Part shown: piece by piece, positions 4,999 through 64,000 of the stretch
Numbering within the stretch: the stretch's first letter is position 1
Layout of the letters: each line of letters begins with the position of its first letter
From: Fimicolochytrium jonesii
Taxonomy: Eukaryota
NCBI RefSeq assembly: GCF_025526975.1
Contig: NW_026515668.1
Span: 558,001 to 622,000, forward strand
Direction of reading: 5' to 3'
Length of the DNA: 64,000 nucleotides
The notes under the pieces: generated by a model
The model's input: only the letters and a program-made list of their open reading frames with translations
Told to the model about the DNA's origin: nothing
The model's database searches: none
Made by a program: the position numbers and the translations under genes

Positions 4999-5014
4999 GG
5001 GAGAAATTAGAGTC

Positions 5015-5245
5015 GTGATTGCTTTTCCAACGGAAAAAGTGAGTTCCTGACGCCGATAGGGATTTCGTATGTGTTCCGATCGACTTTCCCTGTCCAAGGG
5101 TGGGAATCTTTCAAGAGGGTGACGGCTACTATGCCGCTCAACGCGTGACGCTTGTGATTGCTTTTCGCAACGGAAAAAGTGAGTTCCTGACGCCGATAGG
5201 GATTTCGTATGTGTTCCGATCGACTTTCCCTGTCCAAGGGTGGGA
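5015..5245. repeat. Direct repeat of ~91 bp (5015-5105 and 5154-5245) just upstream of the sorting nexin ATG
   Basis: gtgattgctttt..caacggaaaaagtgagttcctgacgccgatagggatttcgtatgtgttccgatcgactttccctgtccaagggtggga occurs twice, differing by a 1-nt indel. Confidence 0.95.
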
Positions 5246-5247
5246 TG

Positions 5248-5383
5248 ATAGAAAAAGTAACGCATGTGAGCAATCTATCTCCGCTCAGAACTGCACCATT
5301 GTGTTGAGTTTTCACCATGTGTAATACGGCACTACGGCATATTGGCACAATGAACTGCGACGTCAGGTTCACGTTGCCGAGAG
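5248..5383. repeat. 136-bp copy of 4281-4416 (intron plus exon piece of the sorting nexin gene)
   Basis: Base-by-base match at offset 967 with 3 substitutions seen. The copy includes intron sequence. Confidence 0.95.
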
Positions 5384-5915
5384 TCTATGCTATGGGTGGT
5401 GGCTGGGGAAAACAAGTCTCGCTTGCAGTAAGCACTACTAGTGCCACCTGAGGAAAGGCATTTGGTTGATATTCGTATTCCACCGAGTACAACAATCCTA
5501 CCGGGTTGGAATCCTACGCTCGAAGGACAAGATTCGAGCTGTCGATCGAAGCGAAATCGAACTCTACAGGAGAGGGCAGGAAGATATCGCCCGTATCGTA
5601 CGCCAAAACAGACAAAGCGCTTTACTGGGTCAGAGCGCCGTCAACCCTGACTATCGCCACTTAAACTTTTTCAAGGTGGTGCAGAACGTAATTTCCAGGC
5701 TACAAAAATGTCGGGGCTTTGAGGCCAACTATGCTTCGCTACCTATTCTAATGAATGTCAAACGTAGGAGGAGGATAACCGATGCACCTATGGGTCCCTC
5801 TCCAAGTGCTACTCGGTGGAATACGAATATCAACCAAATGCCTTTCCTCAGGTGGCACTAGTAGTGCTTACTGCAAGCGAGACTTGTTTTCCCCAGCCAC
5901 CACCCATAGCATAGA
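5384..5915. repeat. 106-bp inverted repeat (5384-5489 / 5810-5915) around a 320-bp spacer
   Basis: tctatgctatgggtggtggctgggg...attccaccgagta is the reverse complement of tactcggtggaatacg...cccatagcataga. Confidence 0.95.
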
Positions 5916-8900
5916 GTGTGGCTACCCGGCCCGAGGCGGTCACTGTTGTGGTCGCAGCTGTGTTGGTCATTGTAACAACGCGAGTGGTCGGCTGGGCAGT
6001 GGCTGTAGTGGTAACGGTCGCCGTCGAAAGTGTCTGCGTGATCGTAGCAAGCGATAGTGTTTCAGTCACCGTGGAAAGAGTCTGAGTGACCGTCGAGAGG
6101 GTCTCGGTCACCGTGGAAAGCGTGTGGGTGACTGTAGCTACGGCCAGTGTCTCAGTCACCGCGGCAGTAGACAGAGTCGACGTCTGAGTGACCGTAACTG
6201 GGGACGGTGTGAAAGTAGTTGTCTGAACTTCCGTGGACGTCACTGTAATCGTGCTGACCGGTACGGTCGAGGTGACCGTATCAGTTTCGTGGACAGTCGT
6301 CGTGGCGCTCGATGTCTCGGTTTTTGTGGTAGAATCCGTGATGGCCTCCGTCTCGGTATCTGTGACGGTATCCGTGGCGGTTGTCGTCGTGGTCGACTCG
6401 GATGTAACGGTAACCTGAGCCGCCGTAGTCGAAAACGTAGTCGTCTCGGTCTGAGTAACATCGTGAGTCGAAACACTCGTTTTCGTGGTCGTGATAGATT
6501 CGATGCTTGTCTCGGTAGTTGTCGCTGTTGCGGTCGTGGTTGATTCGGATGTGACTGTGATCGCCGCCGCTGTAGTGGAAAAAGTAGTTGTCTCGGTCTG
6601 AGTAACGTCGCGGGTTGAGACAGTAGTTTTCGTGGTCGTGTCAGATTCGGTGCTGGTCTCGGTTGACTTTTCGGTAGTGGTCATGGTCGCCGTCGTGGTC
6701 GATTCAGATGTGACAGTGATTGCCGCCGCTGTAGTGGAAAAAGTAGTTGTCTCTGTCTGAGTAACGTCGCGGGTTGAGACAGTAGTTTCCGTGGTCGTGT
6801 CAGATTCGGTGCGGGTCTCGGTTGACGTTTCGGTAGTTGTCGCGGTTGCCGTCGTGGTCGATTCGGATGTGACTGTGATCGCCGCCGCTGTAGTGGAAAA
6901 AGTGGTTGTCTCCGTCTGGGTGACGTCGCGGGTCTTGGTGTCCGTGGTGGTCTCAGTGGCAGTGGCTGTTGCGGTAGTTATCTCGGTTTCTGTGTTGGTA
7001 TCTGTAGTGGATGCGGTAGTCGTCTCGGTGTCCGTGGTGGTCTCAGTGGCTGTGGCGGTAGTGGTAGCAACACTGATCGACAAGCTGACGGTGGTTTGAG
7101 TGGCAGTGGTAGATTCAGTGACGGTAGCCGTTTCCGTCTCCGTGTCGGTAATCGTGGTGGATTTGGTGCTCGTGTCGGTAACGGTACTAGCGGGCGCCGT
7201 AGTTGTGGTAGTCGATTGGCTGACTTCTACGATTGTAATAGCTCCCGCGGTGGTGGTGCTCGTAACCGTGGTTGGCTCCACGCTGACGCTAATCGAAGTG
7301 ACGGTGGAGTAGCTCGTGTAGTAAACGTTATCCACTTCAGTTGATATCAGGGTCTCGGTGCTGGTCAAGTATTCAGTATCAATGTCAGTTTCAGTCGACA
7401 CCGAAAGAGTTGTTGTCACCGATGTCACCGTTGCAGTCGACGCTTCCTGCGTCGTGGTCGTTGTCGCGGTTTCAGTAGTAGTGGCGGTGGACGTTGCGGT
7501 ACTAGTAGCCGTGGCCGTGGAGACGCTCAGCGAAACCGAGGTCGAGATTGTCGTGGTCGTCGACGTGACTGTCGACGCCGGGGCCGTAGTGGTTGTAGTG
7601 GATGTCACCGAAACGAGGCTTGTAGTAGGGACCGTAACCGTCGATGCGGGAGCAGTTGTGGTGCTGGTAGCCGTGGAAGTGGAGACCGAAAGCGAAACCG
7701 AGGTTGAGACTGTTGTGGTCGTCGAAGTGACTGTCGAGGCAGGAGCGGTAGTGGTTGTTGTGGATGTGACTGAAACGAGGCTTGTCGTAGGGACCGTAAC
7801 CGTCGATGCAGGAGCGGTGGTGGTGCTGGTAGCCGTGGAAGTGGAGACCGAAAGCGAAACCGAGGTTGAGACTGTTGTGGTCGTCGAAGTGACTGTCGAG
7901 GCAGGAGCGGTAGTGGTTGTTGTGGATGTGACTGAAACGAGGCTTGTCGTAGGGACCGTAACCGTCGATGCAGGAGCGGTGGTGGTGCTGGTAGCCGTGG
8001 AAGTGGAGACCGAAAGCGAAACCGAGGTTGAGACTGTTGTGGTCGTCGAAGTGACTGTCGAGGCAGGAGCGGTAGTGGTTGTTGTGGATGTGACTGAAAC
8101 GAGGCTTGTCGTAGGGACCGTAACCGTCGATGCAGGAGCGGTGGTGGTCGTGGTACTAGTGGAGGCGGTGGTGGTGACCGAGATCACTGTGCGTGTGGAA
8201 GCCGAAGCAGTTGTCACCGAGATCACCGTGCTAGTTGATGCCGGTGCCGTTGTAGTAGTCGTCGTGGTGGAAGTCGTGGAAGTTGTCGTCACCGGGAAGA
8301 TATTCGGGGGGCAGGCCTGGATCATGTCTATCGTGGCATTGTAGAACAGCTTGGTCTTGGTAGCGGCATTCCCGGTCGAATCAAAAATGTCTGTAATCGG
8401 GAAGACACGCATCCAGTTGTTCCGCAAAAGCATCTTTGCTTGTAAGCTGTTTCCCAACGACGCCTGCTTGAGTGCCAAGTAGGTAGTGGAGGCTTCGAAG
8501 CCTGTGTAGTCAGTGTTCATGTAATTGAGATCGGGGTGACCGTACTGGTACACGGCGGTATTGGTGTTATATTGATCCGCCGAGGCGCTCGCTGAATTGG
8601 CAAACATGGCATTGTACCGGTTCCACGACGTTTGCGGGAGGGCCCAGCTAGCTTTGATCTGCATCGAAGGAACTAGCATGGAAAGCCTGACGTTGTTCGC
8701 ATACAACAGCTCGGTGGTGTTTGTGATTTCGTCAATAAACGCCTGGTCCATCGACAAAGCGGAAGCAGAGTTACGATAGTACTGGTAAGTCGGAGGATCA
8801 CCGTAGGTGGCTGAAGTTGTATTCCAGAACGTCTTGGGGCTGAAGTTAGGTTCCCAATTGGCTTGCTGGTTATCCCAAGAGCCGGTGTAGATGTCGGTGG

Positions 8901-9701
8901 AGTTTCCGTTGGTACCACAGTTTGCTGTGACGGCACTATAGGTTCCGGTGCGATTGGTATATGGAACGCTACAGAGACCACCAGTGCTTTGCACCATTCC
9001 CGGCTGCAGGTAGGACGACAAGGTCGGATAATCGGAGTCTTCGTCCGTAAACATGACAATGGTCTTTTGCGCGCCAACTGTTTCAAAAAGGGCGTCAGAA
9101 ATCTACCAATGCTGGTCGCAGGCGTCCACATCGCAACGCCAAAACGAGAACAACTCACCTCGCCAGCGCAAGTAGCAATTCGCAGAGGTAGTAACAGTGT
9201 TATAAGACAAACAATCGTTTGTGAAATCAGCACCCTCGTTGCTGTTCAAGGCAACACGGATCGCTTCCAATCCGGCTTCCTGTCCATTACGACTGCATCC
9301 AATAGCACCGATTGACGCCGCAGTCACTGTAGCGTCGGTACTGAAAGGTTGGACCAGAGAAGGCCGTCCTCCGAACGCAGCGACTGCGAAGCGAACATCC
9401 GTCATATTTTTCGAATTGAGCACACTGGTGAAGGACGATACTTGTGCAGATAGAGCGTTTGTGTAATCACACTAGTTATGCGGACACATTTCATTAACAA
9501 AATCCCAGAACACATCGACTCCAACAGCCTCGACTGATCGACGACAACGAGACTCACCATACTGCTCGATCCGTCAACCAGGAACAATACATCCAACGGT
9601 ACACCATTGCTCCCACCATAACAGGTCTGAGCGTTGACAACGGTTGCTGCAAGTCCAAGTCCCACAAAGGGCGCGGCCCATTTCATCCAAGTGTCTCTCA
9701 T
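5848..9701 (-). CDS. Secreted or surface vWA-domain protein with Thr-rich mucin-like stalk; no TM or tail (possibly 3'-truncated); introns ~9557-9472 and ~9158-9078
   Basis: Signal peptide MKWAAPFVGLGLAATVVNA. MIDAS motif DVLFLVDGSSSM, followed by VRFAVAAFGG, QEAGLEAIR and LRWR-VGAQKTIVMFTDEDSD. About 800 Thr/Ser-rich residues follow CPP. Paralog of 52825-57609. Confidence 0.8.
6400..6930 (-). repeat. Coding tandem repeat, ~147-159 bp, about 4 copies
   Basis: The unit RDVTQTETTTFSTTAAAITVTSESTTTAT... recurs; agtaacgtcgcgggttgagac is at 6601 and 6760. Confidence 0.85.
7500..8150 (-). repeat. Coding tandem repeat, 162 bp (54 aa), about 4 copies
   Basis: ggagaccgaaagcgaaaccgagg recurs at 7681, 7843 and 8005. 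Unit TTTAPASTVTVPTTSLVSVTSTTTTTAPASTVTSTTTTVSTSVSLSVSTSTATS. Confidence 0.9.
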
Positions 9702-15812: not shown

Positions 15813-18800
15813 TCATTGAATTTGACGACGGACGGCATCGCGAGCCCATTTGGCGGTTCTCCTCGTGTCGAGGTCGAGAGATTGGTCGGTCTTGACGCTG
15901 CGGAGGAAGCTTTGGATCCATTCGGCGGCGAACATGGGACGGAATGGTCCCGGAGGGAAAGTGTCCGCGAGATCGCTGAAAAGGAAATGAAAATTGAGCT
16001 GAGGTTTATTCTGGAGCCGCAGTCGATAGGACCATACCCAATGAGCCCAACGAGCCCGCTGGTGACCTCGACGGTTCTCTCGGATTCGGCAACAGCCTGT
16101 GCGAAGGCGAAGATGTGGGGCGCAGCTCGGGCATCTGCCAGGAGTTGGGCTGTATATCCAGCGGGGAATTCGTCAGGATTCAGCCTTCGAGTGCATTCTG
16201 GAAAACCAGCAACGCGAACTTACGTTTGCCCGCGGTTTTCAATCCCTGTGTGATCCCCACGTACGCTTCGATGATGCTTTCCCGCAATTTGCTTCCATAG
16301 TCCAAGTCGTATTTCTGGAAAAGGAATGTGGGTTAAGATTCTATAGCGCGGCCAATGTTGCCACGATCTTCTGATCGACATACAATCGCGGTATCTGCCA
16401 TAGCTCCCGCCTGCTGTAGGATGGCCATTGTCAGATAAAGGTACGCCTCAAAGTGGGCGCCAATAGCAAGAGCAATATCTCCGAATGTGGAGAGGATTGA
16501 GGGCTTGACGCTCTTGTCCAGGTTGGCATTCTGGAGAACGACGAAAGAATTAGTGAATTGGCCTCCCAGAACGGGATTTACTGACATCAAGCATACCTGC
16601 AGGCCCGCCATCAAGAGGTTCATGATGGGCTCGCAGTAAGGTAGGAACTGCTCGCCCAACGCACGGGTGAGATCCCCCACGACGCCTACAGCGATCGAAC
16701 ACATCTATAGAAAACATGAAACAGTGAGTGGGTGGATTTCGAAGGAAGGTACCGCGGCGTACACCTACCTGGGGTTCCTCAACATTCTGCAGGGCGGCGA
16801 ACAGTTGCGGGGCAAATGCGTCCATGTACCGTAGGAAGTGACTTTCCAAAGCTATCATGCGGTTAGTGATCAGTGTACAAGTACGAAGGGTAGTTTGGTG
16901 ACGCCAGAACGTACCACCAGTCAAGCTGCTGATCGCGAGGAATGTGTCCTCCATCACGGTCGACGACCTAGAAGCGGATGTCATCACAACGAGAAGGGCT
17001 TGCATGGCTTGGTCGGCCAGGGGTATGACTCCGGCTCCAAGACGGCGAATGCATGCTCCGAGGATACCGCATAGATTCGATTGCAACTCATAATGGTTTT
17101 GCCGGTCATCCTGGGTCAAAAGCTGGTTTTGCATCTGGATGGTTTGTTGCAGGCGATCCAGAATCAATTCCGATAGAGTTTTCACTGTTGGTAAGCAGTC
17201 CTGAGCACAGTTGCGGACCAGGGAGGATTGGGCCTCGTAACAGCTCGCTTTGAAGTTGGGATCGGTAGAGCTGTCTGCGGCACTGCTTGTCGCCTCGATG
17301 ATAGTCGGGAAGAAGGAAGACAAGACATACGTAGGTTCACCGTTCCCGCGAATGCTCTCGCCAAAGTTCATGAGAGACCATGCACAGTTCGAAGCGATCC
17401 GCGGCTTCTCCCTCAGCCCTTCCAACAAGACCGAAATCACCGGTTGAATGAATTCGGGGCCGATGGCCTCAGGGTGAAGCTCGCAGATACGTCCAAGGGT
17501 CCACGCCGTCGAGTCTTTTACTTGGTCCTTTTCATCCTTCATCAACGGGATGAGGACCCGAAGAGCTTGCGCTACAACGCTGGTCAGGCCCTCTGGGCTA
17601 GGCCCCTCCAGGACGGATCCGAAAGCGGTCACTGCCGCTTCTCTGTGCCGCCAATCAGCGCCGGTAATGTGCTGCTGAATGTACTTCAGAATTGGTTCAA
17701 TCACCGCATCATGGGTCGCTTGCGCGAGGAGCGACAAGCATGTCGCGGCGGCCATGGAAACGTTCCAGTCGTCCTCATCATCGTCCTCCTCCTTCTTGGT
17801 CATGAGGAACCATAGCGCATCTACCAACTCCTTGACGAATACCGTAGCAAAGCGGAAATTTGGTCGCTCCGTGTCGTCGTCCTCATACGCGTTCTCTTCC
17901 TCGATATCGATCTCCACCTCGCAGACTGTCGACCAGAACTCAACGGCCTGCAGAGCGATTTCCTCCGTTTCGCTGGTCATTCCCCAAAGGGTCAGCTGGC
18001 TGAGTGCTTGTTGCATGTACTGCTCCATGTGTTCGTAGTAGAGGGACATGATCTTCACCAGGCACTCAAACCCAGCAACTTGCACTTCTTCCGGCTCTGT
18101 CTTACACGCTTCACAAACGACTTGCATGATGAAATTCCGCTCGCCGGCGTGTTCGAAATTACTCTTCACGAATTCCAAGGCGTTCAGCAATGCGTTCAAA
18201 GCAGTTTCACGGAGTGCAGGGTCGGCTTGGGGAGTGGCTCCCGAGCAGACCGCCGTCAATATAGGGTTGGCGTATTGCGTAAGGACGTTGGGATCGACAG
18301 CCTCACAGACAAGACCGATTGCCTTCAGTGTGGCCTTTTTCAGGTCCGTGTTGGCCGCCTTAGCGGGGTTTGTGACGTTATCCAGCATGATGGGCATAAG
18401 GTCTGGCCATTGATTTTGTGGAAGCTCGACTTCAGCGATGGCTTGGATAACCTATACGGGGAGTAGCGCATTGAGCTGAGAACTCGAACAACTCAGTTTG
18501 CTTTCAGACATACCTGGGTGGCACCATTTGATGCGGACTTGGCGGGACTGTTCAACACATTCAAAGCCTGTTGTGAATCGGACTACAGGTGAGAAGCTGA
18601 ACTGGCCCTGGCCGATTCTTCCAACACGAGACTTACAGCTCCCTTAACGGCCGTCCGCATCCCAGGGTCCGAGGCAAGCCAGCGGCTCGCAAGCTGCTCC
18701 TTTTTGAGAGGATCCTAATCCCATTGGTGTGATGTTAGTTACAGATCCACAAAGTCAGCGCGCTATAGACCTTCGATGAGTACCTTTGCAGAGATGGCAT

Positions 18801-39520: not shown

Positions 39521-40966
39521 TCACATGTGGATGTGGCCCGAGATAGCCTCGGCATGAGCCACCCTGCCCATCAACGCAACGTGGTCCGCCACGTTCTTCA
39601 ATGATAACCGGGCGTTCTCGCTTGCTTGCGCGAAGTGGTGCGTGACGTACTTGATACCCGTCTCCGCCGAGAACTCCTTGACGTACGGAATGCACTTTCG
39701 TAGGTTGTGCCTTGGGACGCGAGGGAAGAGATGGTGGATGGCTTGGTATTGAAGCCCCCCGTGGAACCAGTCCAAGTACCACGGGCACTCGACATCCATT
39801 GTTGTGCGCAACATCTTCGCAGGGAAGGTTTCGTCCTTGCCGAGGTCCTCGAAGGACATCGAAAAGTGAGACATGTTGATCTGGATGTGGAGGAATACGG
39901 TACTCATGTGCGAAATGAGGATCCACATGAGTTTGTAGCGGATACCGGGTATCTGGTATACAACGGTGCCGAGCCAGGTGAAGTAGGAAGCCATCAAAAT
40001 CATCTCGGTGGACCGCTTCTTGTAGTTGGGCTCGGTGAAGAGGAACTGCCACGAGAGGAAGTAAAGGAGGAAGCGTCCAAAGAGCAGCACGATGTAGTAG
40101 TAAAGATGTTGGAAGGGGATCAGCAACTTTGCAACGTCGTCGAAGACAATCGTCCTGTTGTAGTAGGACGAGTAAACGTCGTTAAGGAAGCGCTTCGAGA
40201 GGGCGAAGAACGGAAGTTGCTGGATATCCGGATCGTGCTCGGGGTGGTTGGTGGCGATATGGTGCACATAATGACTCTTCTTCCACCAACCAATCGATAG
40301 ACCACCACAGAAATCGCCAAGGAAAACACCGATCCTCGCGTCGGTCTCACGATCGTGCGTAATGCCGTTGTGACCAGCGTCGTGGGCGGTGAAGGCAGTC
40401 TGATGCCAGAAAGAGCCCATGAACAAGGCACTTAGGGCGTAGTGCCACCACTGGCTGCCGTAGACGATCAGTAACACTGATGAAGTCCAGCATGTGGCAT
40501 ACTGGATAGCATGCGCAACATAGTACCACATGTTCGTCTCGAACAAGCCGGCAGCTTTGATCTTGTGTTCCAGTTTCTTGTAAGCTACGCGGATGCGTTC
40601 CTTCTCCTTCAGCACAACCTTTTCTTCGTCGGTCGGTGGTTCGGTAACGAGCTCCCCAACAAAGTACCGGGGGAGACGTTCATCAATCACCCATCGAGGG
40701 TGCAGGCCGTTGATTTCATCCGTGGCGTCGCAGCCGGCCATGTGCTTCACAACGAGTTCGCCTCCCGGGTGGAACTTCAGGAATGGTGTAGCATTGTAGA
40801 CTTTGCCTTCGTAAATAACAAGGGTTTCACCGTTGGCTACACGCTCGTCGACGGCACGCTTAGTGATGACCTTTGGTGGTGGAGATACACTTCGGGAGCG
40901 GTCACTGCCCGAGTCGGCGAGGTGGAGCTTCGAGTCATGACGCTTGATAAGACGGGGCTCTTCCAT
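39521..40966 (-). CDS. SLD1: Cytochrome b5-fused front-end desaturase, probably delta-8 sphingolipid desaturase (intronless)
   Basis: HPGG heme motif and His boxes HDAGH, HYVHH and QAIHH; TNHPEHDPDIQ is typical of fungal SLD. First in-frame ATG is at 40966; the ORF track starts at a TTG. Confidence 0.88.
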   Translation of the reverse strand: MEEPRLIKRHDSKLHLADSGSDRSRSVSPPPKVITKRAVDERVANGETLVIYEGKVYNATPFLKFHPGGELVVKHMAGCDATDEINGLHPRWVIDERLPRYFVGELVTEPPTDEEKVVLKEKERIRVAYKKLEHKIKAAGLFETNMWYYVAHAIQYATCWTSSVLLIVYGSQWWHYALSALFMGSFWHQTAFTAHDAGHNGITHDRETDARIGVFLGDFCGGLSIGWWKKSHYVHHIATNHPEHDPDIQQLPFFALSKRFLNDVYSSYYNRTIVFDDVAKLLIPFQHLYYYIVLLFGRFLLYFLSWQFLFTEPNYKKRSTEMILMASYFTWLGTVVYQIPGIRYKLMWILISHMSTVFLHIQINMSHFSMSFEDLGKDETFPAKMLRTTMDVECPWYLDWFHGGLQYQAIHHLFPRVPRHNLRKCIPYVKEFSAETGIKYVTHHFAQASENARLSLKNVADHVALMGRVAHAEAISGHIHM

Positions 40967-42936
40967 ACTGGGCAAAGATCGAGAAGACTTCGAGGGTATC
41001 GATACGCTGATAGTAAGCACGGCAATTGAAACGAGGAGGCTGGTAAGCAAGAGGACATTCACCCTCGCGGTAGGTCGCAAGCCGAGACACCGCAATTACT
41101 GACCTCGAGAGCGCTGTGAAACCAATGACGAGTGGATATGTTGAAGCACGTTCAAGCGTTACGCACGAGACGCCCGACGCGAGAAGATACCCAAGCTGAA
41201 ACTTGCGACCGAACAAATGGACCCGGGAGTGTCTCGAAGTCGAGTGCTGTGCCAATGCCTATGCAAGAAAGGGGCCCTGCTGAACGAGCCGAGACTTCAA
41301 AAAGTGCGGCCGCTTATATACAGGGTGCGTAGTATTACCCCAATCCGCTTTCGTCCATATGGTTTGTTTGGTAGTCGCACACGGGCCTGAGCTGGATCTG
41401 GAAGGCGCGTTGGGCCGCCAAGCAAGCGGCCCAAGCAATATGTCGCATCCCCATCAGCTCACACATTCAACTAACTTTAGCACGCACAACGCGAGAACGG
41501 GCCATGGGAAGGGCCGCTACCGGAGCCTCGTAGCTATGCCCCCACGGGCCTACCAACCCTGCGGCCCCAGGGCACCCTCCGAGGGCACTGCCTCACGAGC
41601 TGAGAAAATGATCCCATACCATCACCCTGAGTCGGGCCAGTTTTTGCTGGGCCCCGGTATACGAGATCACGTTTTCGTCTACCGCTTCCGCGGATCAGTC
41701 TCGATCGGCGATTAACATACATACGGAAACATCGAGGCGCCGAAGGTCCGAAAACATCGCCCGCAACCGCTGACGATACATAGTGCTTTCTCGAAGAACA
41801 TATAAACGTACTCGGTCTTCCGCCTGACAACCGATGCTCAATAGTGCGACCACCAGCTTATCTTGGTGATTTACATGCGGGTGGAAGAAGGGAGGTTTTC
41901 GGGGTGCTGTCGAGTGATGATTGAGGATGCTTCGTCTTCGCGATGCACCGAAGGAATCATGAGCTTGGACCCTTTTCCAGTATTCGGCAGCGTCGATGCC
42001 ATCTCAAGTTTCTCCACGTATCCAGAGCGCTCATAAGTGGCTGCGTTCATGGCAGAGGCAAAACCTTTGCATTTGCAGCAGGTGCGGAAATCAAAGACGA
42101 CTGAACTGCACGAATACGACAGATTTATGTCGGTAAACCGTCGTTCTCATTTGGAAGAAGGGCCTCACGACATCGCGAGGAAGCTGCACCCGCTAGAGTG
42201 CAGTTTAGCCGAGTTTAAGGTTACGCGTGAACTTAAATAGACTCAAGGTTAGGTTATGGTTATGGTAAGTCACCGGCCCCCTGGTTAGGATTAGGGTTAT
42301 ACGGTTAGGATAGGGTTAGGGTGGGTGGGGGCTTGCTTAAGGAAGGGGTCAGTAATTTATTGAAAATAAATATATTATTTAAATGGTGACCCTTAACCGG
42401 GTACCTTAAATCCGAAAACCCACTACAGTAAACTGCACCCTTACCGCTGCACCCCTGTGATGAGGGCACGATGCTCGCGGGAGTGCTGATATGTGGACAG
42501 TGTGCGATGCGCCTTTCATGTGCACTCAGCGCTTCAGAGCTTCTGGACCAGGATCTCTAAGAAATTCGTGCATATAACGATCCTCGGAATGCAGTTTGGC
42601 TGCAGGCCAATAGCCTTCCTTATTAAGAGTGTTGATTTACGATGGCATAATGAACCTTTTTGGGCTGATCCAAAGCATCCGATCTATCTGCATCCCAAGA
42701 GGCGGGACTTGGATACGTCTGGCGCAATGTCTAAGGGGTTCCTTCGAACAGAAACGCTCGCACAGTTGAAGGACTTCGTCAGACTTTTGAAGCACGCGTC
42801 GATATCCTGCCCTACACGTGGGAGAATGTGAGAATTTAGGAGAATTTACCCACATGGAACCATAGAACGATGACTGGCCAGGCCAGTGTCAGTGTCCCTC
42901 GCACTACGCACTTCCTGGGGGATCCTCAGCGGAGAT

Positions 42937-52623: not shown

Positions 52624-52725
52624 TGCGGAAGGAAACACCAAACGAGATTACGAACTACCAACTTATAAGAAGAGTGCGGAAGGAAACACCAAACGAAATT
52701 ACGAACTACCAACTTATAAGAAGAG
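52624..52725. repeat. Tandem duplication, 51 bp x2 (one mismatch)
   Basis: tgcggaaggaaacaccaaacga[g/a]attacgaactaccaacttataagaagag occurs twice, downstream of the vWA receptor stop codon. Confidence 0.95.
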
Positions 52726-52824: not shown

Positions 52825-55800
52825 CTACACCGTCGTCGATACCCGGGGTTGGTACAGAGGGTTCTCGTGGGCCTGGTGAGGCTGCTGGTAGAGCGGGTTG
52901 CTCTGAGCATTGCTGAACGCGTTCTGGGCCATGGTAGCGTTCCCGAACCGGCCAGCGAAGGTGCCCGACTTGTAGAAGAACATACCGGCACCGCCGATAG
53001 CAGCGATACCAGCAGCGCTAGCCGCAGCGACACCCACGTAGGTTCCGGTGCTGCCGCCTCCGGTGGGACCGGTGCTCTCAGTGGCAGTAGGAGCTGCAGA
53101 GCTGCTTGAGCTGCCCGGGACGTCAGAGGTTGGGGTGGGTTCAGCGGAGGTGGTAGGAGTAGCGATCGGGGTGGGAGTTGGCTGAGCAGCGGCCTCGGTG
53201 CTGCTAACGGACACCGTGGTGCTCTCACTGGTCGAGGTCGAGGTCGAACCTGCGGTTGTGGAGGTCTCACTGGTCGAAGTGAGGATTTCACTACTGGTCG
53301 AGGTAGAGGTAACTTCCTCGGTGGAGGTCGATGTCTCCGTCGAAGACACACTGGTAGACGTGGAAGTAGGCTCCTCAGAGGTAGACGATTGAGTGGAGCT
53401 CGTGGTCGGCTCAACGGAAGAGGAGGTGGTTGTAGGTTCAGCCGAGCTCGTGGACGATTCCGCAGTCGAGCTAGTGGTCGGCTCTTCAATGGACGAGGTC
53501 GTTGTCTCGGTCGAAGACACACTGGTAGACGTGGAAATAGGCTCCTCAGAGGTAGACGATTGAATGGAGCTCGTGGTCGGCTCAACGGAAGAGGAGGTGG
53601 TTGTAGGTTCAGCCGAGCTCGTGGACGATTCCGTAGTCGAGCTGGTGGTCGGCTCTTCAATGGACGAGGTCGATGTCTCGGTCGAAGACACACTGGTAGA
53701 CGTGGAAATAGGCTCCTCAGAGGTAGACGATTGAATGGAGCTCGTGGTCGGCTCAACGGAAGAGGAGGTGGTTGTAGGTTCAGGCGAGCTCGTGGACGAT
53801 TCCGCAGTCGAGCTGGTGGTCGGCTCTTCAATGGACGAGGTAGAGGACTCGGTCGAGCTGGTAGACGGCTCCTCCGTCGAACTGGTAGATGCCGCTTCAA
53901 TCGAGCTTGTAGACGGCTCCTCGGTTGAACTGGGGGTGGGCTCCTGGTACTCAGGTTCCTCGGTGGAGCTCGTGGCCGCCTCCTCGGTCGAGCTGGTGGT
54001 AGGCTCCGCGGTCGAGCTGGTGGTAAGCTCCTCGGTCGAGCTGATGGTAGGCTCCTCGGTCGAGCTGGTAGACGGCTCCTCCGTCGAGCTGGTGGACGCC
54101 TCCTCAGTGGAGCTGGAGATTGGCTCCTCGGTCGAGCTGGTGGTAGGCTCCGCGGTCGAGCTGATGGTAGGCTCCTCGGTCGAGCTGATGGTAGGCTCCT
54201 CGGTCGAGCTGGTGGACGCCTCCTCAGTGGAGCTGGAGATTGGCTCTTCAGAAGAGGTAGACGTCGGCTCTTCAATGGAGGTTGGTTCCTCAGTCGAGCT
54301 AACGGTAGACTCCTCGGTCGAGGTAGAGCTTGGCTCCTCAGTGGAGCTGACAACCGGCTCGACAGTGGAGGTGCTAGTTGGCTCCTCGGTGGAAGTGGAG
54401 GTCGATTCTTCGGTGGAGGTGCTAGTTGGCTCCTCGGTGGATGCGAACTCTTCAATGGAAGTAGAAGATGGCTCCTCCGTGGAGGTTAACTCTTCCGTGG
54501 AAGTCGAGGTTGGCTGTTCGGTGGAAGTCAACTCTTCGGTAGAGGTTGGCTCTTCCGAGGAGGTGGCGGTGGACTCCGCAATGGAAGTGGAAGTCGGCTC
54601 CTCACTGGACGTGGACTCCGTCGAGGTCGGCTCAGCGCTAGATGTGGACTCCTCCGTAGAAGTAGGCTCGGCGCTAGACGTGGACTCTTCGGTGGAGATA
54701 GGCTCCTCAGATGTCGAGCTAGTGGAAACTTCAATCAAGCTTGGAGTCGGTTCCTCAGAGGTCGAGGTAGATGTGGGCTCGTCGGAAGTGGTCTCGACAG
54801 AAGTGGAGGAGGTGGTTGGCTCCTCAATAGACGAGGTAGAGCTGGTTGTGGGCTCCTCCGAGGAAGACGCAGTGGGCTCCTCCGACGTGGTCTCGACGGA
54901 AGTGGAGGAGGTGGTTGGCTCCTCAATAGACGAGGTAGAGCTGGTTGTGGGCTCCTCCGAGGAAGACGTAGTGGGCTCCTCCGACGTGGTCTCGACGGAA
55001 GTGGAGGACGGCTCCTCAATAGACGAGGTAGAGCTGGTTGTGGGCTCCTCCGAGGAAGCCGAGGTAGAAGACGTAGTGGGCTCCTCCGACGTGGTCTCGA
55101 CGGAAGTGGAGGACGTGGTTGGCTCCTCAATAGACGAGGTAGAGCTCGTTGTGGGCTCCTCCGAGGACGTGGAGGTAGACGAGGTAGTGGGCTCCTCAGT
55201 GGAGGACGTCGACGGTGTTGCGGGCTCCTCCGATGAGGTAGAGGTGGACGACGGCTCCTCCGATGAGGTGAACGTGGAAGACGTTATGGGCTCTTCAGTT
55301 GAGGACGTCGAAGTGGTAGTAGACTCCTCAGAAGACGAGGTAGAGCTTGTGGTGGGCTCAGCGGACGACGTCGTGCTTGTAGAGCTTGTAGTGGGCTCGG
55401 CGGACGACGTCGTGCTTGTAGAGCTTGTAGTGGGCTCGGCGGACGACGTCGTGCTTGTAGAGCTTGTAGTGGGCTCGGCGGACGACGTCGTGCTTGTAGA
55501 GCTTGTAGTGGGCTCGGCGGACGACGTCGTGCTTGTAGAGCTGGTCGTGGGCTCGGCGGACGATGTGGTGCTTGTAGAGCTGGTCGTGGGCTCGGCGGAC
55601 GATGTGGTGCTTGTAGAGCTTGTAGTGGGCTCGGCGGACGACGTGGTGCTTGTAGAGCTGGTCGTGGGCTGGGCGGACGATGTGGTGCTTGTAGAGCTGG
55701 TCGTGGGCTGGGCGGACGATGTGGTGCTTGTAGAGCTTGTAGTGGGCTCGGCGGACGACGTGGTGCTTGTAGAGCTGGTCGTGGGCTGGGCGGACGATGT

Positions 55801-57609
55801 GGTGCTTGTAGAGCTGGTCGTGGGCTGGGCGGACAATGTGGTGCTTGTAGAGCTGGTCGTGGGCTGGGCGGACGATGTGGTGCTTGTAGAGCTGGTCGTG
55901 GGCTGGGCGGACGATGTGGTGCTTGTAGAGCTGGTCGTGGGCTGGGCGGACGATGTGGTGCTTGTAGAGCTGGTCGTGGGCTGGGCGGACGATGTGGTGC
56001 TTGTAGAGCTGGTCGTGGGCATGGCGGATGATGTGGTGCTTGTAGAGGTTGTAGTGGGCGCGGCGGACGACGTCGTGCTTGTAGAGCTTGTACGGGCGGC
56101 GGACGAAGTAGTGCTTGTAGATGTAGAAGTGCTCGTGGACTTAGACGTAGAGGTTGACGATGTAGACGACGTCGTGCTGGTTGTGCTCGTGCGGGTCGAT
56201 ACACTAGTGGAGGACGACGTAGTACTGGTGCTGGTCGAGGTCGAGGTCGAGGTTGACGAAGTAGAGGACGTAGACGTAGATGTGCTCGTCTTGATCGGGG
56301 TGGGACTAGGAGTAGGAGTCGGGATGACCGACACAACCGGGGGGCAGTATTCAACCATGTCAACGGTGGCTTGGAAGAAACTGTCAATGGCCTGAAGACC
56401 TCTGACCGGGTCGATCAAGTCCTGAATCGGGTATAATCGCATCATTCCGTTGCCCGCCAAGACTTGAGCTTGCAGAGAGTATCGGAACCCGTTGTTGACC
56501 AGGTTGTTATACGTCTTCTGCTGATCGAAGTTGCTGTAGTTGGCGCTCTGGCTAGCGGACTCTGGGCTTCCGAACTGCAGGATGGACGTGTGCGAGTTCG
56601 TGTTGTCGATGTCAGAGTAGGTTGCGGCAGTCTTGTGTGTGGCATTCCAGTACAGCGAAGCTCGATTGTACGAGGAGATCGGGTTAGCGGCGTTCGCATT
56701 GATGTCGGAGCGCATCAACATGTTTAGTTGAATGCCGCCTTTGATGATGAGACCGGCGACGAGATCAACCTCAGCTTGGTATGCGGCATCCAGAACAACT
56801 CGGTCCTTGGTCGCACGAACGTACTGAGCGTAATCGCCGGTAATACCACCAGATACGGGGTATGAGGTCCAGAACATCCTATTGTCAAATGTGGGCTCAA
56901 TCGTCAAAGATGAGCAGGCGTAAGAAGTCTGACCGGTGGAGGAGACCAGCTTGTAGTAGTAACTCGCGCAGAGGGCATTTGCCGTGGTCTGGCCAGACAA
57001 GCGATAGCTAGCTTGAGTGGGAAGGTCGGAGTCTTCATCGGTGGCCAAGATGATTGAGCGAGTTGCATTGGCGCGCCACAATAACGAGCATTGAGCGCTG
57101 GTATAACCGGTTCCGCAAGCCTTGCCGAGCAGCGGGTCATTGACTAAGGACATCCGAAGAGTCTCGAATGCAGCCTCTTGACCACCCTTGGTGCAGCCAG
57201 TAGCGTCGAGAACATTTTGAGTGGCAGCCGAATCGGACTACGATTGGAAGAATGGTACATCAGTGATTTGTGACTCGATAACCTTTCTACGAGGCTAACT
57301 TACCGTGAAAGGCTGCACAATAACGGGGTTTCCGCCGTATAGAACGATACCAAAGCGAGCGTCCGTGGTGTTGGCGGCCTTCAACCGCGCAACGAAGGTC
57401 GCCATACGCTTGGTAATGACATCGATGTAAGGGCACATAGAACCACTAGCATCAATGACAAACAGGAAATCGGTCGCCCCGTAGCGCGAAACGGGACGGG
57501 TGGTGCAGTTCTGACCAGTTGTTGTTGCAGCCTGAGAGGCGGGGACCGTCAAGCAGGCTGCTGCGACCAAGGCTGCTTTCGTCCAGCCCATTGCGAATGG
57601 AGAACGCAT
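52825..57609 (-). CDS. Type I membrane vWA adhesion-receptor-like protein with Ser/Thr/Glu stalk and double-NPxY cytoplasmic tail (integrin-beta/Sib-like); intron 57303-57238
   Basis: Signal peptide MGWTKAALVAAACLTVPASQA. MIDAS motif DFLFVIDASGSM, then QEAAFETLR and LWRANATRSIILATDEDSD. Stalk of about 1100 aa. TM YVGVAAASAAGIAAIGGAGMFFY. Tail ...SNPLYQQPHQAHENPLYQPRVSTTV*. Confidence 0.85.
53330..53840 (-). repeat. Coding tandem repeat, 171 bp (57 aa) x3
   Basis: cgaagacacactggtagacgtggaa recurs at 53341, 53512 and 53683. Confidence 0.9.
55340..56100 (-). repeat. Coding minisatellite, 39 bp (13 aa, SSTSTTSSA[Q/E]PTT), roughly 19-20 copies
   Basis: gtgcttgtagagctggtcgtgggctgggcggacgatgtg and variants are repeated head to tail. 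Confidence 0.92.
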
Positions 57610-58450: not shown

Positions 58451-60306
58451 TCAAGCGCCGAATTTGTCGAATCGCTGGAATCTTGTGTTATAGAACGACT
58501 GGCCGGCTACCGTCCCATCTGGCAGTCGGATAACGCCCGATAACACGTACCAGGTGCCCGATTCATCACCATTTGACTAAGGAGGAAAATGACGAGGGAA
58601 AGGTTGTTAACGTGGACAGCCTGATACGCACAAACAGCGGAGAAAAAACTCACGTCTGATGGCCTGTTTCCCAACCAGCTTCCGACCTTGGCGCCGGTCT
58701 TGTCAAACACAATCAGGCGATTTTCTTGGCCGGGGGCGTAAACATAATCTCCAACCACTTGAAACTGGCCAAAGCCGACGTCGGCAGGGACCGGAATCTC
58801 AACGCCATCTAAAAGCTGCAGGGTGGCGAGGTTGATTTGCTTGAGTTTCCGAGCACCCCCAATTGTCGTCAGGACCCAGTTAGCACCTTTGTCGTCTTTC
58901 GTGAGGTATGCTGGGGAGCCGGTGACATTCACGAAGCCGAGGTATTTGCCGGTAAGAATGTCGAACTTGAAGATTCGTCCGGCTTGACAACTATTGCCTA
59001 GGAGCAACTGCTTGGCCTCTACGTGCATTAAACTGGCAAACGAGCACCAATTGCTGATGTCGGGGATGTCGTTCACGTTCACCTTTCCTTGGTTGCCAAA
59101 CATGGTGATCGGCTCGTTGTAGTAAGTGCGTTGTTCGAGATCGCCGTTCGAGAACAACGTGGTCACCACTCCATCATGGACAGTAAATCCGCTGATGCCG
59201 ATGTATTTGCTTTGCACATATCCATCGAAGATTTGCTCTGGTTCTGCCGCGCCGTAGGATGCGTATCGGGCCACCGTCTTTTCGTACGCCACGTAGACTT
59301 TTCCATCTTGCGCGACTAGACTGGAATCCGAGAAATCCTGGTCTACGGTGTTGACTGGCTTCCACATGTCGACGAACTTGAGGGTGTTGTTAACAGTGAA
59401 CTGCTGCGTTGCGATCTGGGCCGAGTCCCCGAATTCGGCACGAATCGTCACGGTATGGACGCCATTGCTCAGCTTGCCGGTGTTGATGGCAAACGCGGAT
59501 GTGAATGCGACCGGCGCTTGAGAGTCCACAAAGCCGACGAGGGACTGGGGGTCAGAGGAGAGAACCGGTTGGAATTCAATGACTCCCTCGACGTTCGTGG
59601 TGGGCTGGTCTGGTGTAAGAGCGAGAGCGAAGGTTTGGCCCGAGCTGGTGGGAGAGCAAAAGCAGGATTAGGCGAGCTAGACAGAAAAGAAAACATCGAC
59701 CATGCAATAGGGTGTGCTTACCCAGGGGTACTCGTCTGGGCCGGGGCAGTGCTCGTCGATGAAGGGGTGGGGGGTGCAGTGGCGGTGGGTGCGAGGACAG
59801 GGTAATCCACAGGGACGACATAGTTCTGCCAGGTGGTGAGCGAACTAGCCTTTCATCTTCCTTCCGCTTTCCCTTCTTCTTCCTACCTTTCCGTTGTTGT
59901 TATCCCAGAACGTTCCCTTACTTGAGTCGTACCGAACGGCGTACACGACGTTTGTGGGATGTAGACCGTCGGGAAGGACGACGGTCCATGCGAATTCCTT
60001 GGTGTCCTTGGCGAACCTTGCGTCTACATCAGCAACCGTCTTCCAGTTGTCGACGCTGAAGTGCACCTTCACTTTCCCATCCTGGATATCTGCCGCAGCA
60101 TCAAAGGTGTACACCCGCGCCTTGCCGGTGAAGTCGATTTGCTTGTTCGGATAATTGTCGATTGCCACGGCTGCTGGCGCGACGACTATGACGGGCTGAA
60201 GAGGAGTTGGATCGACGACGTCCCCGGGTTGGATGTTAGCGGTCGGAAGGGCGGAGATGAGCGTGGCGCACGCCGCAAGGCCAAAGGCGAGGAGGTTGGC
60301 GACCAT
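58451..60306 (-). CDS. Secreted protein: CBM21 starch-binding module, Pro/Thr linker, Ig-like domain and beta-propeller-like region (3 introns)
   Basis: Signal peptide MVANLLAFGLAACATLISA. CBM21: KVHFSVDNWKT...YAVRY...FWDNNNGK|NY. Ig-like: INTGKLSNGVHTVTIRA...FTVNN. Propeller-like: GRIFKFDILTGKYLG, NRLIVFDKTGAKVGSW, RFQRFDKFG*. Confidence 0.75.
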
Positions 60307-60375
60307 GTCGAGGGATGTAGAGCGGACTCGGCGGACTGGTTCGGGGCGAAAGGAACCGGATGGACATCCGGTCGC

Positions 60376-60383
60376 TTTTTATA
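60376..60383 (-). promoter_or_regulatory. Putative TATA box (TATAAAAA) of the CBM21 gene
   Basis: Consensus TATA box about 70 bp upstream of the ATG at 60306. Confidence 0.5.
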
Positions 60384-62121
60384 GCCCGGCGCTCACAGCC
60401 TGAGCGGCACCCTGCCCAGCAACTCGCAATCGATGTCGCAATCGATGAACCGCCTCGGCGATGCCACAACGTTCACCTGCGAATTCCTTGCGGCGGAGGG
60501 GTATTGAAGATGGCAAGATTGATCTTTCCTCGGATACAGAGACATCCCGGTCTTTTTTCTCATAAATCCTCCTTTGGAATCTTGCATGCTGGCATATTGT
60601 TGCTAGTGTTGATGCCCCATCCGTTGGTTGGCCAAAAACAACAACGGTAACGAGCCCGCTAGCGGCTGCAGCCGATGGTTATCTGCATCTCATACAACTC
60701 TTCAACTTTCTGATGTTTTCGGGAACCACCACCATGACCGTAGGACAAAATTATGTACATGCTGTGTGGATATCGATGGTGTACATACTGTACGAGGCCA
60801 AGTCCAGGCATCAGCGTCGGAGTGCATACAGCAATTTTTTTTTGGTTTCCTCGCCGGTCTACGAAACCGGAGTCTGAGAGCCGCATGTCCCACAGTCCCA
60901 GTGCCGTCGGCGGTGCAGTTGTGTAACCTTGTAATTAACATTGGCTCCCAGGGTGTATGGAAATGGAGGCCGGAACTTTTGTACCACGCGAACCGTTGAA
61001 CGAGGCTTGGTGTGAAAGGACGGTGGAATCTGGATAATCCTGCACACGGGTGGACAGACTTCTCTTGGATCCATTTTCGCAGAGACTGCACCGATATCAT
61101 GGCCAGGCGTAATCGTTCAATTCAGACTCGGTCTTGACTTTGAACACCCTATTTGTGATGTAAAGATAGGAGAAGTCCGTCAGCATTCTTCGACGTCTTC
61201 CAAATAATGCTGATAATGTGCACCTGCCCATGTGTCGTTCCACTCGTCATTCCTTCAAACCTGTTGACTGACGACTTGAAGACGTCGGAACTATTTGGTC
61301 GACTAACAGTCAGATCGCTAACGATAAACCACCACACCACATCACAGTAAACTTCAAACGCACAACACAGCGGGATAGTTACCTTAACGCTGCTCGATGC
61401 CGTGTTGGATATACGAAAGGACACTCGTTAAGACAGAGTACAAGCTCGCACTGATGTAAGTAGAAGCGATGTTCCCGACTGAGGGGGGGCCGACGGGGGT
61501 CGCCTTGTATACTCGCGGGCCTGCGCTCCTCCGGTGCACGGATTTCCATTGCGAATCGCGAGTGTCGTCCATGCCGCCGTTAGTGATGAAAATAAAGTTA
61601 GGAGCTTTGTGGCTCAATCAAGGCTTGATTAATGAATTCACCTTGAAAGCTTGAAATTGAGCTGCTGCACGCTGCATGCATGCAGGCGGGATGGGCTGAT
61701 CGGTCATTTTGGCGTCATTTATTCCATCCGCCCGCATCATTGCAATCGATCGCACCTCTCACCCACTCCCCCCGGGGCTTTGAGTCCGTGACATACGGAA
61801 CCTTGAGGCTTAAGGCTCATGCATAGTAGGTACTATGCGTAGGAGGTGTGATGACAGACGGGCTCGGTGTGAGTGAACCACTAGTGGGGCAGCGACACCT
61901 GCAGTTGTTGAATGTGAGAGGAATGATGTAGGCCAAGCGTCTCTTGATTCCCAGGGAAGAAACATGTTCCCAGGCAAGCGACACGTCTCTACATTTGACA
62001 TTGCAAGAATAGCCCTGTTACTGACGCAGCATGCATCTGAGAAGGGTTCTACATACATATCTATCGTGAAAGAGATTGCTAGAGTACTTGACGCCGTGGT
62101 TCTCGTCAAACAGGGGTACGC

Positions 62122-63410
62122 TTAATTCCTGGCGTGGGTCCAAGACATGAGCATCTCGTACACCGCCATCACTGTGTATTTGCGATTCTCCGCTTCTTGG
62201 AAGACAATGGATCGGTTTGGGTTGTAAAACACCTGGTTTTGGACAAGTGGAGGTCAGCCACGGCACTGTGTTGCAATATGCACCACCACGCAGGATGCGA
62301 ACGCTCACCTCGTCATCCACCTCCTCAATCTTGCGCGGCAAGCAATGCATAAACTTCCAATCCGGCTTACCGCCCCCATCTTTCACCATCTTCTCAGTAA
62401 TCCTAAACCCATCAAAATCCTTTATCCGCTTCGCCTTTTCGCTCTCTTGTCCCATTGACACCCACGTATCCGTGATGACAAAGTCGGCGTTGCGCACGGC
62501 CTCCCGCGGGTCCTTTGTGAAGTGAACGGTGCCCTTCTCCGCCCCGCCCGTGGCTTCGCCAATGGCAAAGTTTACGACATCTGCGTCGCAGTTGTAACCT
62601 TTCGGTGTAGCAACGGTGAGCTCGATGGGACCTAAACGCGGTAGCGAGACGAGAAGGGAGTGTATGATGTTGTTGGCGTCACCGATCCATGCTACCTTCA
62701 ACGGCGGAAGGAGCGGTAAAGGTAGATCGGAGGAGGTGGGTTGAGTGAGGGCATTTGGCAGGCTAGACTCGTAGAGCGTCATGATGTCGGCGAGGGCTTG
62801 AAGCGGGTGATATTTGGCGGTGAGCGCATTGATGACTGGGACGGAGGAATTCGCTGCGAGGATCTGTTTGATGTGAGAAGCTGCACTATAAGCCGGAGAC
62901 AACATACATCAAGGAAGAGCATACCTCGATTTCCTCATGCCCTCCCATCCGGGCCAAAATCACGTCCACCATGCTGCTGACAACAATCGCCGTGTCTTTC
63001 AAGGGTTCCCCACCTCCGATCTGGATGTCTTCCTTCCCCAGAAACATCGAATGCCCTCCATAATAAGCCCAGCCGGTCTCTGCTGACACTCGCGTCCGCG
63101 TGCTGCGTTTCGTAAAGATCATCCCCATTGTGCGACCAGCCAGCGCCTGTTCCCTCGACCGCGCCTCGGACGGATGGCTGCGAATGAGTTGTTTCAGTTC
63201 CAGGGAGCGACGGATCAGCTGCAGGATTTGCGGCGTTGTAAAGTCTCGAAGCGTCAGAAAGTGTTTGGTGTTCGCGAAACTAGGGGACGCATGGGGCTCG
63301 TCGTAGTAGTTTAGGGAGGCTGCTGCTTGGGATAAAGGACGAAAGCGGACTGCTGTGCATGTCGCCTTCAAACATTCCACCGACTTTCGTGTTGCCACTC
63401 GGCCTATCAT
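62122..63410 (-). CDS. ARG3: Ornithine carbamoyltransferase with probable mitochondrial presequence, 2 introns
   Basis: KHFLTL, FTKRSTRTRVS, VPVINAL..KYHPLQALAD, AWIGDANN, TDTWVSMGQE, FMHCLPRK.EEVDDE|VFY and VFQEAENRK. Confidence 0.95.
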
Positions 63411-64000
63411 ATTGCTGGTGCTCCTTCTGGGATATTGGGTTGCGATGTCGTCTGCGAAAGTTCCCACGGTAGAAGAGGACCCAATGACGTGAGCACGTTG
63501 AAATGGGATAGCTCCCCATATACTATCGACACTGAGTCCACATACCTGTAAGACCTTTGCTATATATTACAGTATCTGGACGATGGCGGGTCGTCCGTCC
63601 GCAGCTCTGTCTTTATCAATGACGAGCTCTCAGTATACCGATGTCTCGGCCGTGCGTGGGGTCTTTTGAAGCGAATTTTGGGCGACGTTCCAAAGCGCGC
63701 GTCCCAATGACTCGATGATTATGGGGAGATGTGATTCATCGCATATTCGTCGGTCCTCATATCCATTTGCTTGAGTTGCTGTTGCAAAAGGTTGCGAGGA
63801 TGGATTCCCCACACATTATTGCATGTAAGCGGTCACCCTGATGAGGGTGGGGAGTGGGGGCGACGAGGAAGGATGATGTTCCAAGTCCAAGATCATCCTT
63901 CCCTTCCGAAAGCAAACCGTCGACTTTGAATGACAGGAAATGTTCAATGTTCTTTGATTAGTTCCATCTCCTACCCCTGAGAGTGAGACTCTCGGGCATC

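Follow-up and report, generated by a model that had tools for sequence, protein, structure and literature searches.

The stretch of Fimicolochytrium jonesii DNA analysed here, 64,000 nucleotides (nt) of contig NW_026515668.1 (positions 558,001 to 622,000; hereafter the window), carries on its minus strand a gene for a putative cell-surface receptor with a von Willebrand factor A (vWA) head, a long mucin-like stalk and a short cytoplasmic tail bearing two NPLY motifs. Two exons and one 66-nt intron give a spliced product of 1572 residues, which we interpret as a candidate talin-coupled adhesion receptor belonging to a conserved family. The original prediction for this locus had described a signal peptide, vWA motifs, a stalk of about 1100 residues, a transmembrane helix and a 48-residue tail with two NPLY motifs, all of which are found in the sequence; the span it gave, 52825..57609, encloses the gene and passed over the intron within it. 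The elements of the gene, and the putative ligands of the MIDAS (metal ion-dependent adhesion site) in the head, are listed by window position:

57304..57609, minus strand: exon 1 (residues 1-102), with the start codon, the signal peptide and the first strands of the vWA head including DxSxS
57238..57303, minus strand: intron of 66 nt, GT-AG (GTAAGT...CTGAT...CGTAG), with in-frame TAG stops
52825..57237, minus strand: exon 2 (residues 103-1572 and stop), with the remaining head, stalk, transmembrane helix and tail
57529..57609, minus strand: predicted signal peptide (about residues 1-27), from hydropathy; homologues have similar N-termini
56341..57507, minus strand: vWA head (residues 35-401) with family-specific inserts and eight Cys, from Pfam VWA_2, a homologue model, fold searches and a table of Cys positions
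57439..57453, minus strand: MIDAS D53-x-S55-x-S57; D in 10/11 eukaryotic heads (the row without it is N-terminally truncated), both S in 11/11
57175..57177, minus strand: E123, putative fourth MIDAS ligand, a Glu as in the integrin beta-I domain; invariant in 17/17 heads
57037..57039, minus strand: D169 of TDEDSD, putative fifth MIDAS ligand; D in 16/17 heads
53044..56340, minus strand: mucin-like stalk rich in S, T, E and P (residues 402-1500), with in-frame tandem repeats, from composition and repeat analysis
52972..53040, minus strand: predicted Gly/Ala-rich transmembrane helix (residues 1502-1524), from hydropathy and sequence
52828..52971, minus strand: cytoplasmic tail of 48 residues, from sequence; Pfam Integrin_b_cyt matches below its cut-off
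52888..52899, minus strand: membrane-proximal NPLY (residues 1549-1552), from motif search and homologue tails
52852..52863, minus strand: membrane-distal NPLY (residues 1561-1564), from motif search and homologue tails

The splice model is supported by the homologues, whose alignment runs across the junction of the two exons without a gap. The signal peptide and transmembrane predictions come from hydropathy and sequence alone. Recognizable head motifs are DASGS (residues 53-57), GGQE(AAFETLR) at 120, WRAN at 156 and ATDED at 167, and Pfam VWA_2 matches the exon 1 product with an E value of 3e-5, under its cut-off. The stalk (residues 406-1497) consists of 35% Ser, 31% Thr, 14% Glu and 8% Pro, and all 22 tandem-repeat rows have periods that are multiples of three (for example 39 nt x20, 99 nt x4 and 171 nt x3). 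No Cys lies beyond residue 400. In one soil metatranscriptome 6% of the sampled words were present, and it yielded a 193-nt contig with four differences at 56283-56475 along with a 32-nt partial piece; this contig covers neither the intron nor the transmembrane helix, and we do not count it towards expression. Just 3′ of the stop codon (window 52625-52725), inspection by eye showed a direct repeat of some 50 nt that is near-perfect.

The two tail motifs are separated by eight residues (NPLY-x8-NPLY) and constitute the sole double-NPxY match across the six reading frames of the window. Shuffling the window tail 10,000 times produced two NPx[YF] motifs on 4 occasions (p = 0.00041 with 100,000 shuffles), and the probability was at most 6e-4 for each of six tails treated in this way. 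The Pfam profile Integrin_b_cyt aligns colinearly, with 20 residues on profile positions 25-44 (E 5e-4; 20.1 bits against a cut-off of 23.4). Eight small-xxx-small pairs occur in the transmembrane helix; strict GxxxG is found only at its N-terminal edge, and in three of six homologues there is none. The HDR[KR]E helix is missing from the window tail and was found in 0 of 36 transmembrane-bearing members of the family.

Searches seeded with short words returned 4 and 10 matches, with named members from Geranomyces, Rhizophlyctis, Irineochytrium, Synchytrium, Chytriomyces and, among aphelids, Amoeboaphelidium. Over 1.84 billion representatives, a profile built from 11 heads produced 136 matches at E ≤ 1e-30, and the best 150 matches were listed. 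Together, 155 proteins were examined (143 new ones from the best 150 and 12 earlier ones), one of which had no scoring domain, leaving 154 that were classified; their split into "eukaryote-type" and "bacterial-type" heads is imperfect, the second class including protist members and fragments. A transmembrane helix downstream of the head was detected in 45 of the 154. Among these 45, at least one NPx[YF] is present in 39 and two in 31, and the pair NPx[YF]...Nxx[YF], whose conservation in orthologues was among the tests set by the original prediction, is kept in 36. Within these 36 tails the spacer is 8 residues in 21, 7 in 12, 10 in two and 11 in one, Leu stands at position +2 of the first motif in 31 and of the second in 32, and the first motif lies 20-29 residues past the transmembrane helix. 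Head and tail thus stay constant while the stalk is free to change, and the case for a functional tail rests mainly on this. A relic or chance pair of motifs, on a generic vWA mucin with no cytoskeletal link, is a very improbable account: it could draw on the 109 of 154 family models in which no transmembrane helix was detected, and on sporadic bacterial proteins that have the same head and no such tail, but the low shuffling probabilities speak against it, and the retention of the pair from chytrids to Fonticula largely refutes it.

Twenty of the new matches were looked up by name, 23 proteins in all. The named members come from 13 species: Geranomyces, Rhizophlyctis, Irineochytrium, two Synchytrium (one of them Synchytrium microbalum), Chytriomyces, Polychytrium, two Amoeboaphelidium, Pecoramyces, Fonticula, Thecamonas and Chromosphaera. 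The stalks of the family range from mucin-like to Cys-rich, and many are much shorter than that of the window protein. The Fonticula alba member has a Cys-rich stalk and the tail NPLF-x8-NPLF, that of Thecamonas trahens a Cys-rich/EGF-like stalk with NPLY followed by NAIH, and that of Chromosphaera perkinsii hardly any stalk and NPMY-x8-NDIY. The family predates fungi. Several heads or pAdhesive_15 domains occur in some of its members: P0141, a gene model of Pecoramyces ruminantium (Orpsp1_1), has five vWA repeats and no transmembrane helix, and the related P0142 (Joint Genome Institute, JGI), P0144 and P0145 combine two or three vWA domains and pAdhesive_15 with a full NPLY-x8-NPLY tail. In another JGI protein, P0005, which is near-identical to P0004, the tail diverges at the first NP, loses both NPLY motifs and ends in CTIL, presumably a CaaX-like motif; this deviant tail may reflect a chimeric assembly or an alternative end. 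A metagenome scan with the exon 2 head gave 87 pattern matches and a viral scan 47, none of them a relative. Our literature search found no such receptor described in fungi and no mention of six locus tags, with most subscription journals and the supplementary tables of two bioRxiv preprints lying outside its reach; the ITGB table might include the Thecamonas protein.

A Ser/Thr stalk of about 1100 residues would presumably be long enough to span a wall, and the protein might on that ground be imagined as a mechanosensor for the wall or coat in walled stages (cyst, germling, rhizoid), similar to fungal signalling mucins, with its head in the organism's own wall and its tail signalling to the cortex without attachment to anything outside. 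We regard this as quite unlikely. Fonticula, Thecamonas and Amoeboaphelidium, which have family members, feed or crawl in stages without walls; the stalks of many members are, as noted, much shorter; and the conserved MIDAS points to an acidic ligand (PMC7351488). What speaks for a role in walled stages is that talin-type scaffold transcripts peak in germinating spores and that vinculin in Batrachochytrium dendrobatidis is higher in sporangia than in zoospores (PMC5042518).

The roles of E123 and D169 in the head are assigned from the order of motifs rather than from coordinates, and their spacing is unlike the ITGB consensus; alphaI domains have Thr at the position where beta-I domains have the Glu ligand. 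Cys59 and Cys117 occur in all 11 of the first eukaryotic heads and in none of six bacterial ones, and Cys35 and the Cys ending the last helix are kept in most heads. The putative disulfide pairs are 35-400, 59-117, 143-152 and 192-210. Fold comparisons rest on an AlphaFold2 model of a homologue and not of the window protein: the P0004 head, 51% identical to the exon 2 part of the window head, was modelled with a pLDDT (predicted local distance difference test) of 74.5 and a pTM (predicted template modelling score) of 0.80, with inserts below 50. Foldseek placed integrin beta chains first (E 2e-6), with Mfa5 at 4.5e-6, and in a second fold search all 50 rows were beta-I or pactolus, the PDB being crowded with such domains. 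Against 48,161 representative chains, the top seven were likewise integrin beta-I or pactolus (Z 16.3-17.2, root-mean-square deviation 2.6-3.7, 185-200 residues aligned), about 1 Z ahead of the non-integrin vWA domains PitA (16.0) and Rpn10 (15.9), with alphaI domains at about Z 14.3 and TRAP at 13.6 further down. A phmmer search of PDB sequences with the two head pieces and the tail returned nothing relevant, and a profile of the central E...TD segment gave E values of 0.4-1.6 that did not tell alphaL and beta8 apart. Atlas feature matches to phage, bacterial and integrin-beta vWA clusters (0.87-0.93) were treated as leads only.

Trees of the heads group the window gene with a JGI protein and Geranomyces (support 99/97 in one tree and 99 in the other), followed by Rhizophlyctis, which suggests a chytrid close to Spizellomycetales, and place Fonticula with five NPxY proteins that have Cys-rich stalks (95). 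Bacterial heads fall on one side of a branch with support of 99/97 (6 rows) or 93 (13 rows, 10 of which were labelled bacterial from their architecture). The trees are unrooted, have low deep support and hold no true integrin or Sib rows, and no origin or direction of transfer is claimed from them. By sequence, the nearest kin outside the family are bacterial vWA domains; the family profile scored four bacterial heads at 177-192 bits and integrin beta chains at 12-16 bits. These TDEDSD-type surface proteins, from Verrucomicrobiota, Planctomycetota and Vicinamibacterales, are 26-29% identical over the length of the head and have in common with the family the motifs GLEAIR, TDEDSD and SLQAQVL, but they lack the Cys set and the NPxY tail and have shorter inserts. 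They are sporadic and rare: among genomes sampled from two phyla, 3 of 401 in one and 1 of 301 in the other carry them, seed genomes counted in. Three were located as follows:

L120, 3887-4900, plus strand: bacterial surface protein with a TDEDSD-type vWA head (with a PEP-CTERM-like end)
L118, 3-1418, plus strand: bacterial surface protein with a TDEDSD-type vWA head
L119, 3761-5161, plus strand: bacterial surface protein with a TDEDSD-type vWA head

The idea that fungi acquired a bacterial head and evolved the tail convergently is weakened by the Fonticula, Thecamonas and Chromosphaera members, in which the same head and NPxY tails occur together.

Besides these bacterial proteins, three known systems invite comparison. 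Like integrin beta chains, the family has the DxSxS...E...D order in the head, a modelled head closest to beta-I folds and an NPx[YF] pair colinear with Integrin_b_cyt, and in five proteins of protist relatives the Cys-rich stalk repeats a DxCGxC core 7-21 times. None of 11 proteins matched the amoebozoan stalk pattern in full. Of the features by which ITGB proteins are recognized in section 9 of 10.1101/2020.04.29.069435, the window protein has the beta-I-type MIDAS head and the cytoplasmic NPxY/F motifs. The ADMIDAS (adjacent to MIDAS; SxxDD) reads SMCPY in the window protein, and 11 of 11 eukaryotic heads have no DD at these positions; the SyMBS (synergistic metal-binding site; NDxPxE/NxDxPE) reads GGQE, and NxDxPE was found in 0 of 11 family proteins. 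The window protein has no PSI, hybrid, EGF/Cys-rich stalk or beta-tail domains, its sequence after residue 400 consisting of S/T/E/P repeats free of Cys, and its tail has no LLxxxHDRKE alpha-interacting motif. Pfam Integrin_beta (PF00362) exceeded its cut-off in none of 11 single heads; two multi-repeat relatives do exceed it, but only in summed score and in no single stretch. Fungi are reported to lack integrins (PMC5042518).

Similarity to Dictyostelium SibA-SibE lies in the type I single chain, the vWA domain, the single transmembrane helix (Gly-rich in the Sibs, Gly/Ala-rich here) and the two NPxY motifs, in an organism that has talin and no integrin (PMC9197732, PMC12686525). The window protein differs in an ectodomain made only of head and mucin stalk and in a head with its own inserts and TDEDSD signature. 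Pfam vWA_SIBA-E (PF24909) matched 2 of 11 heads weakly (best E 0.002, 18 bits against a 27-bit cut-off) and was silent over five bacterial genomes, where the equally silent controls make the scan uninformative. Sibs have been reported from dictyostelids only (10.1101/2020.04.29.069435). TRAP and MIC2 resemble the window protein as single chains with an I domain, an extended stalk, a transmembrane helix and a short tail; the I domain of TRAP, however, is alphaI-like (Z 13.6, vs. 17.2 for beta-I). The window protein has no Pfam match to the thrombospondin repeat (TSR) domain and no Cys after residue 400, whereas TRAP, to our knowledge, has a TSR domain and neither an NPxY pair nor a link to talin. 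In TRAP/MIC2 an N-terminal Cys is linked to the end of helix 7 (PMC7351488), which the Cys35-Cys400 pair may parallel. Judged from these sequence features, the window protein is neither an integrin beta chain nor a Sib. The integrin-beta/Sib-like label of the original prediction holds for the overall design and for the structural comparison it had proposed, in which beta-I folds come out on top for the homologue model with a lead of about 1 Z, and fails for PF00362, PF24909, the ADMIDAS, the SyMBS and the legs; its suggestion that a mucin stalk replaced the legs fits the Cys-rich stalks of relatives in Fonticula, Thecamonas and other protists. The family is real, conserved and apparently undescribed, Sib/integrin beta-like by design and a member of neither group.

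Talin, which the original prediction had proposed to look for, occurs with an F3 domain in relatives that host the family. A talin was fetched from metagenome contigs by a short motif and its relatives were searched, with 120 of 2949 matches listed. Among the matches listed, 8 of the 13 named family hosts have a talin with the F3/PTB domain (PF02174), all full-length: Geranomyces variabilis, Rhizophlyctis rosea, both Synchytrium, Chytriomyces hyalinus, Polychytrium aggregatum, Amoeboaphelidium protococcarum and Fonticula alba. The other five hosts are not among these matches, which does not imply absence. Rhizoclosmatium globosum reportedly lacks talin. The F3 domains of chytrid and aphelid talins are 58-70% identical to that of zebrafish talin-2a and retain the RRWAA and YIDII stretches, which we take to form the NPxY pocket. 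In Spizellomycetales and Rhizophlyctis talins the loop with the activation-site Leu of animal talin (presumably L325) is altered, which fits family tails without the HDRKE helix. When Geranomyces talin F2-F3 was co-folded with the window tail, the score was 0.57 against 0.16 for the best control, with contacts agreeing to at least 86% and a partner pLDDT of at least 53. This co-fold is rated weak: 51 of 78 solved pairs reach the mark, as do 2 of 108 mismatched ones, in a calibration outside which peptides fall, and passing scores of 0.60 or less came from only 5 of 78 solved pairs, yet from all four passing mismatches of 180. The score may also reflect memory of solved talin-integrin complexes. 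As a separate observation, the receptor P0014 (MIR68_004457) and talin P0034 (MIR68_004558) of Amoeboaphelidium protococcarum carry locus tags that differ by about 100, and their contigs have the same length (1,152,983). A single contig probably holds both, which is likely incidental.

Another FERM or PTB protein, such as the myosin Myo22 or an endocytic/recycling adaptor, could instead read the tail, in which case the protein, as a surface adhesin or capture receptor, would control trafficking or filopodial transport through its tail and not couple to force through talin. We consider this unlikely. The uptake signal FxNPxY has an aromatic residue two places before the motif, and in the 36 paired tails such a residue precedes the first motif in only 2 and the second in only 5; the near-fixed distance from the membrane and the spacer of 7-8 residues match the colinear Integrin_b_cyt alignment; and Myo22 is patchy in chytrids, whereas talin was found for most named hosts among the matches listed. 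In favour of such a reader, the weak talin co-fold cannot separate family members, and NPxY is a general ligand of PTB domains (PMC9197732). Some chytrids also possess Myo22, which has MyTH-FERM domains (10.1101/2020.06.12.142943).

The window also holds a paralogue of the head at 5848-9701 on the minus strand (DGSSSMC, GQEAGLEAIR, TDEDSD), with two predicted introns, a Thr-rich stalk and 1228 residues by the splice model. Its 3′ end lies inside a 106-nt perfect inverted repeat, so that this end may be mis-assembled or rearranged. The repeat is part of a cluster of duplications (4301-5915) that suggests local rearrangement or an assembly artefact:

4301-4416 and 5268-5383: direct duplication, 116 nt
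5015-5105 and 5154-5245: direct duplication, 92 nt
5384-5489 and 5810-5915: inverted duplication, 106 nt

The window neighbours are ordinary eukaryotic genes. None of the 14 neighbouring frames scanned, DENN and PA-RING proteins among them, has a link to an adhesome; others encode the following:

748-3531, minus strand: RGS-PX sorting nexin
16550-18451, minus strand: importin beta
39521-41095, minus strand: cytochrome b5-fused fatty-acid desaturase
59845-60378, minus strand: secreted CBM21 protein
62018-63566, minus strand: ornithine/aspartate carbamoyltransferase

We estimate at roughly 70% the probability that the window protein is a single-chain, talin-coupled adhesion receptor that works like Dictyostelium SibA. 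The MIDAS head would hold a divalent cation and bind acidic groups on a surface, and the stalk, presumably stiffened by O-glycosylation, would serve as a spacer by which the head reaches past the cell coat or wall. The small-residue transmembrane helix may cluster, and the proximal NPLY would bind talin F3 and thereby provide a link to actin. Neither an alpha subunit nor inside-out activation of the classical kind would take part, the HDRKE helix and the hybrid, PSI and EGF legs being missing. The putative Cys35-Cys400 disulfide could let pulling force open the head, as described for TRAP/MIC2 (PMC7351488).

Several findings weigh against this talin-coupled receptor. The talin used for co-folding is that of a relative, Geranomyces, and not the organism's own. 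In 109 of the 154 proteins no transmembrane helix was detected, many of them apparently fragments or bacterial, and among named members the models of Geranomyces, Rhizophlyctis, Irineochytrium, Chytriomyces and Pecoramyces stop without one, as does the window paralogue, which has no NPxY either. Six transmembrane-bearing members have no NPxY, with tails of 1-37 residues, several apparently cut short. An aromatic residue five places ahead of the first motif, the position that we take to be the talin-contacting Trp in beta3, is not conserved (1 of 36 tails), and the fold margin over non-integrin vWA domains is the narrow one given above. No Batrachochytrium or Spizellomyces member is among the 23 proteins looked up by name, and both genera have talin; the family may therefore be neither the sole nor the universal chytrid receptor. 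In Orpinomyces C1A, scaffold genes showed no rise when cellulose was colonized by attachment, and their peak fell in germinating spores (PMC5042518), which also tells against the stress that the original prediction laid on zoospores. The MyTH-FERM myosin Myo22 of some chytrids is another possible reader of the tail (10.1101/2020.06.12.142943).

Basal fungi keep talin and vinculin without integrins, and the anchor of these proteins has been posed as an open question, raised for Pecoramyces (Orpinomyces C1A), itself a host of the family (PMC5042518). The family offers a specific, conserved candidate receptor with a short tail for that question, and its range reaches a nucleariid (Fonticula), an apusomonad (Thecamonas) and an ichthyosporean (Chromosphaera). 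With the odds about evenly balanced, it may represent an undescribed third lineage of receptors coupled to talin, next to integrin beta and Sib, one that descended from an apusomonad-opisthokont ancestor, outlived integrins on the fungal line and, in aphelids and chytrids, gave up its Cys-rich legs in favour of a mucin stalk, which would explain why zoosporic fungi kept talin and how integrin-like mechanical adhesions could exist there without an alpha chain. If the tail does bind talin, talin force coupling would have persisted in fungi by way of a non-integrin receptor, a finding that would bear on the relationship between integrin beta and Sib and would provide a molecular handle on the surface attachment or crawling of zoosporic fungi and aphelids.

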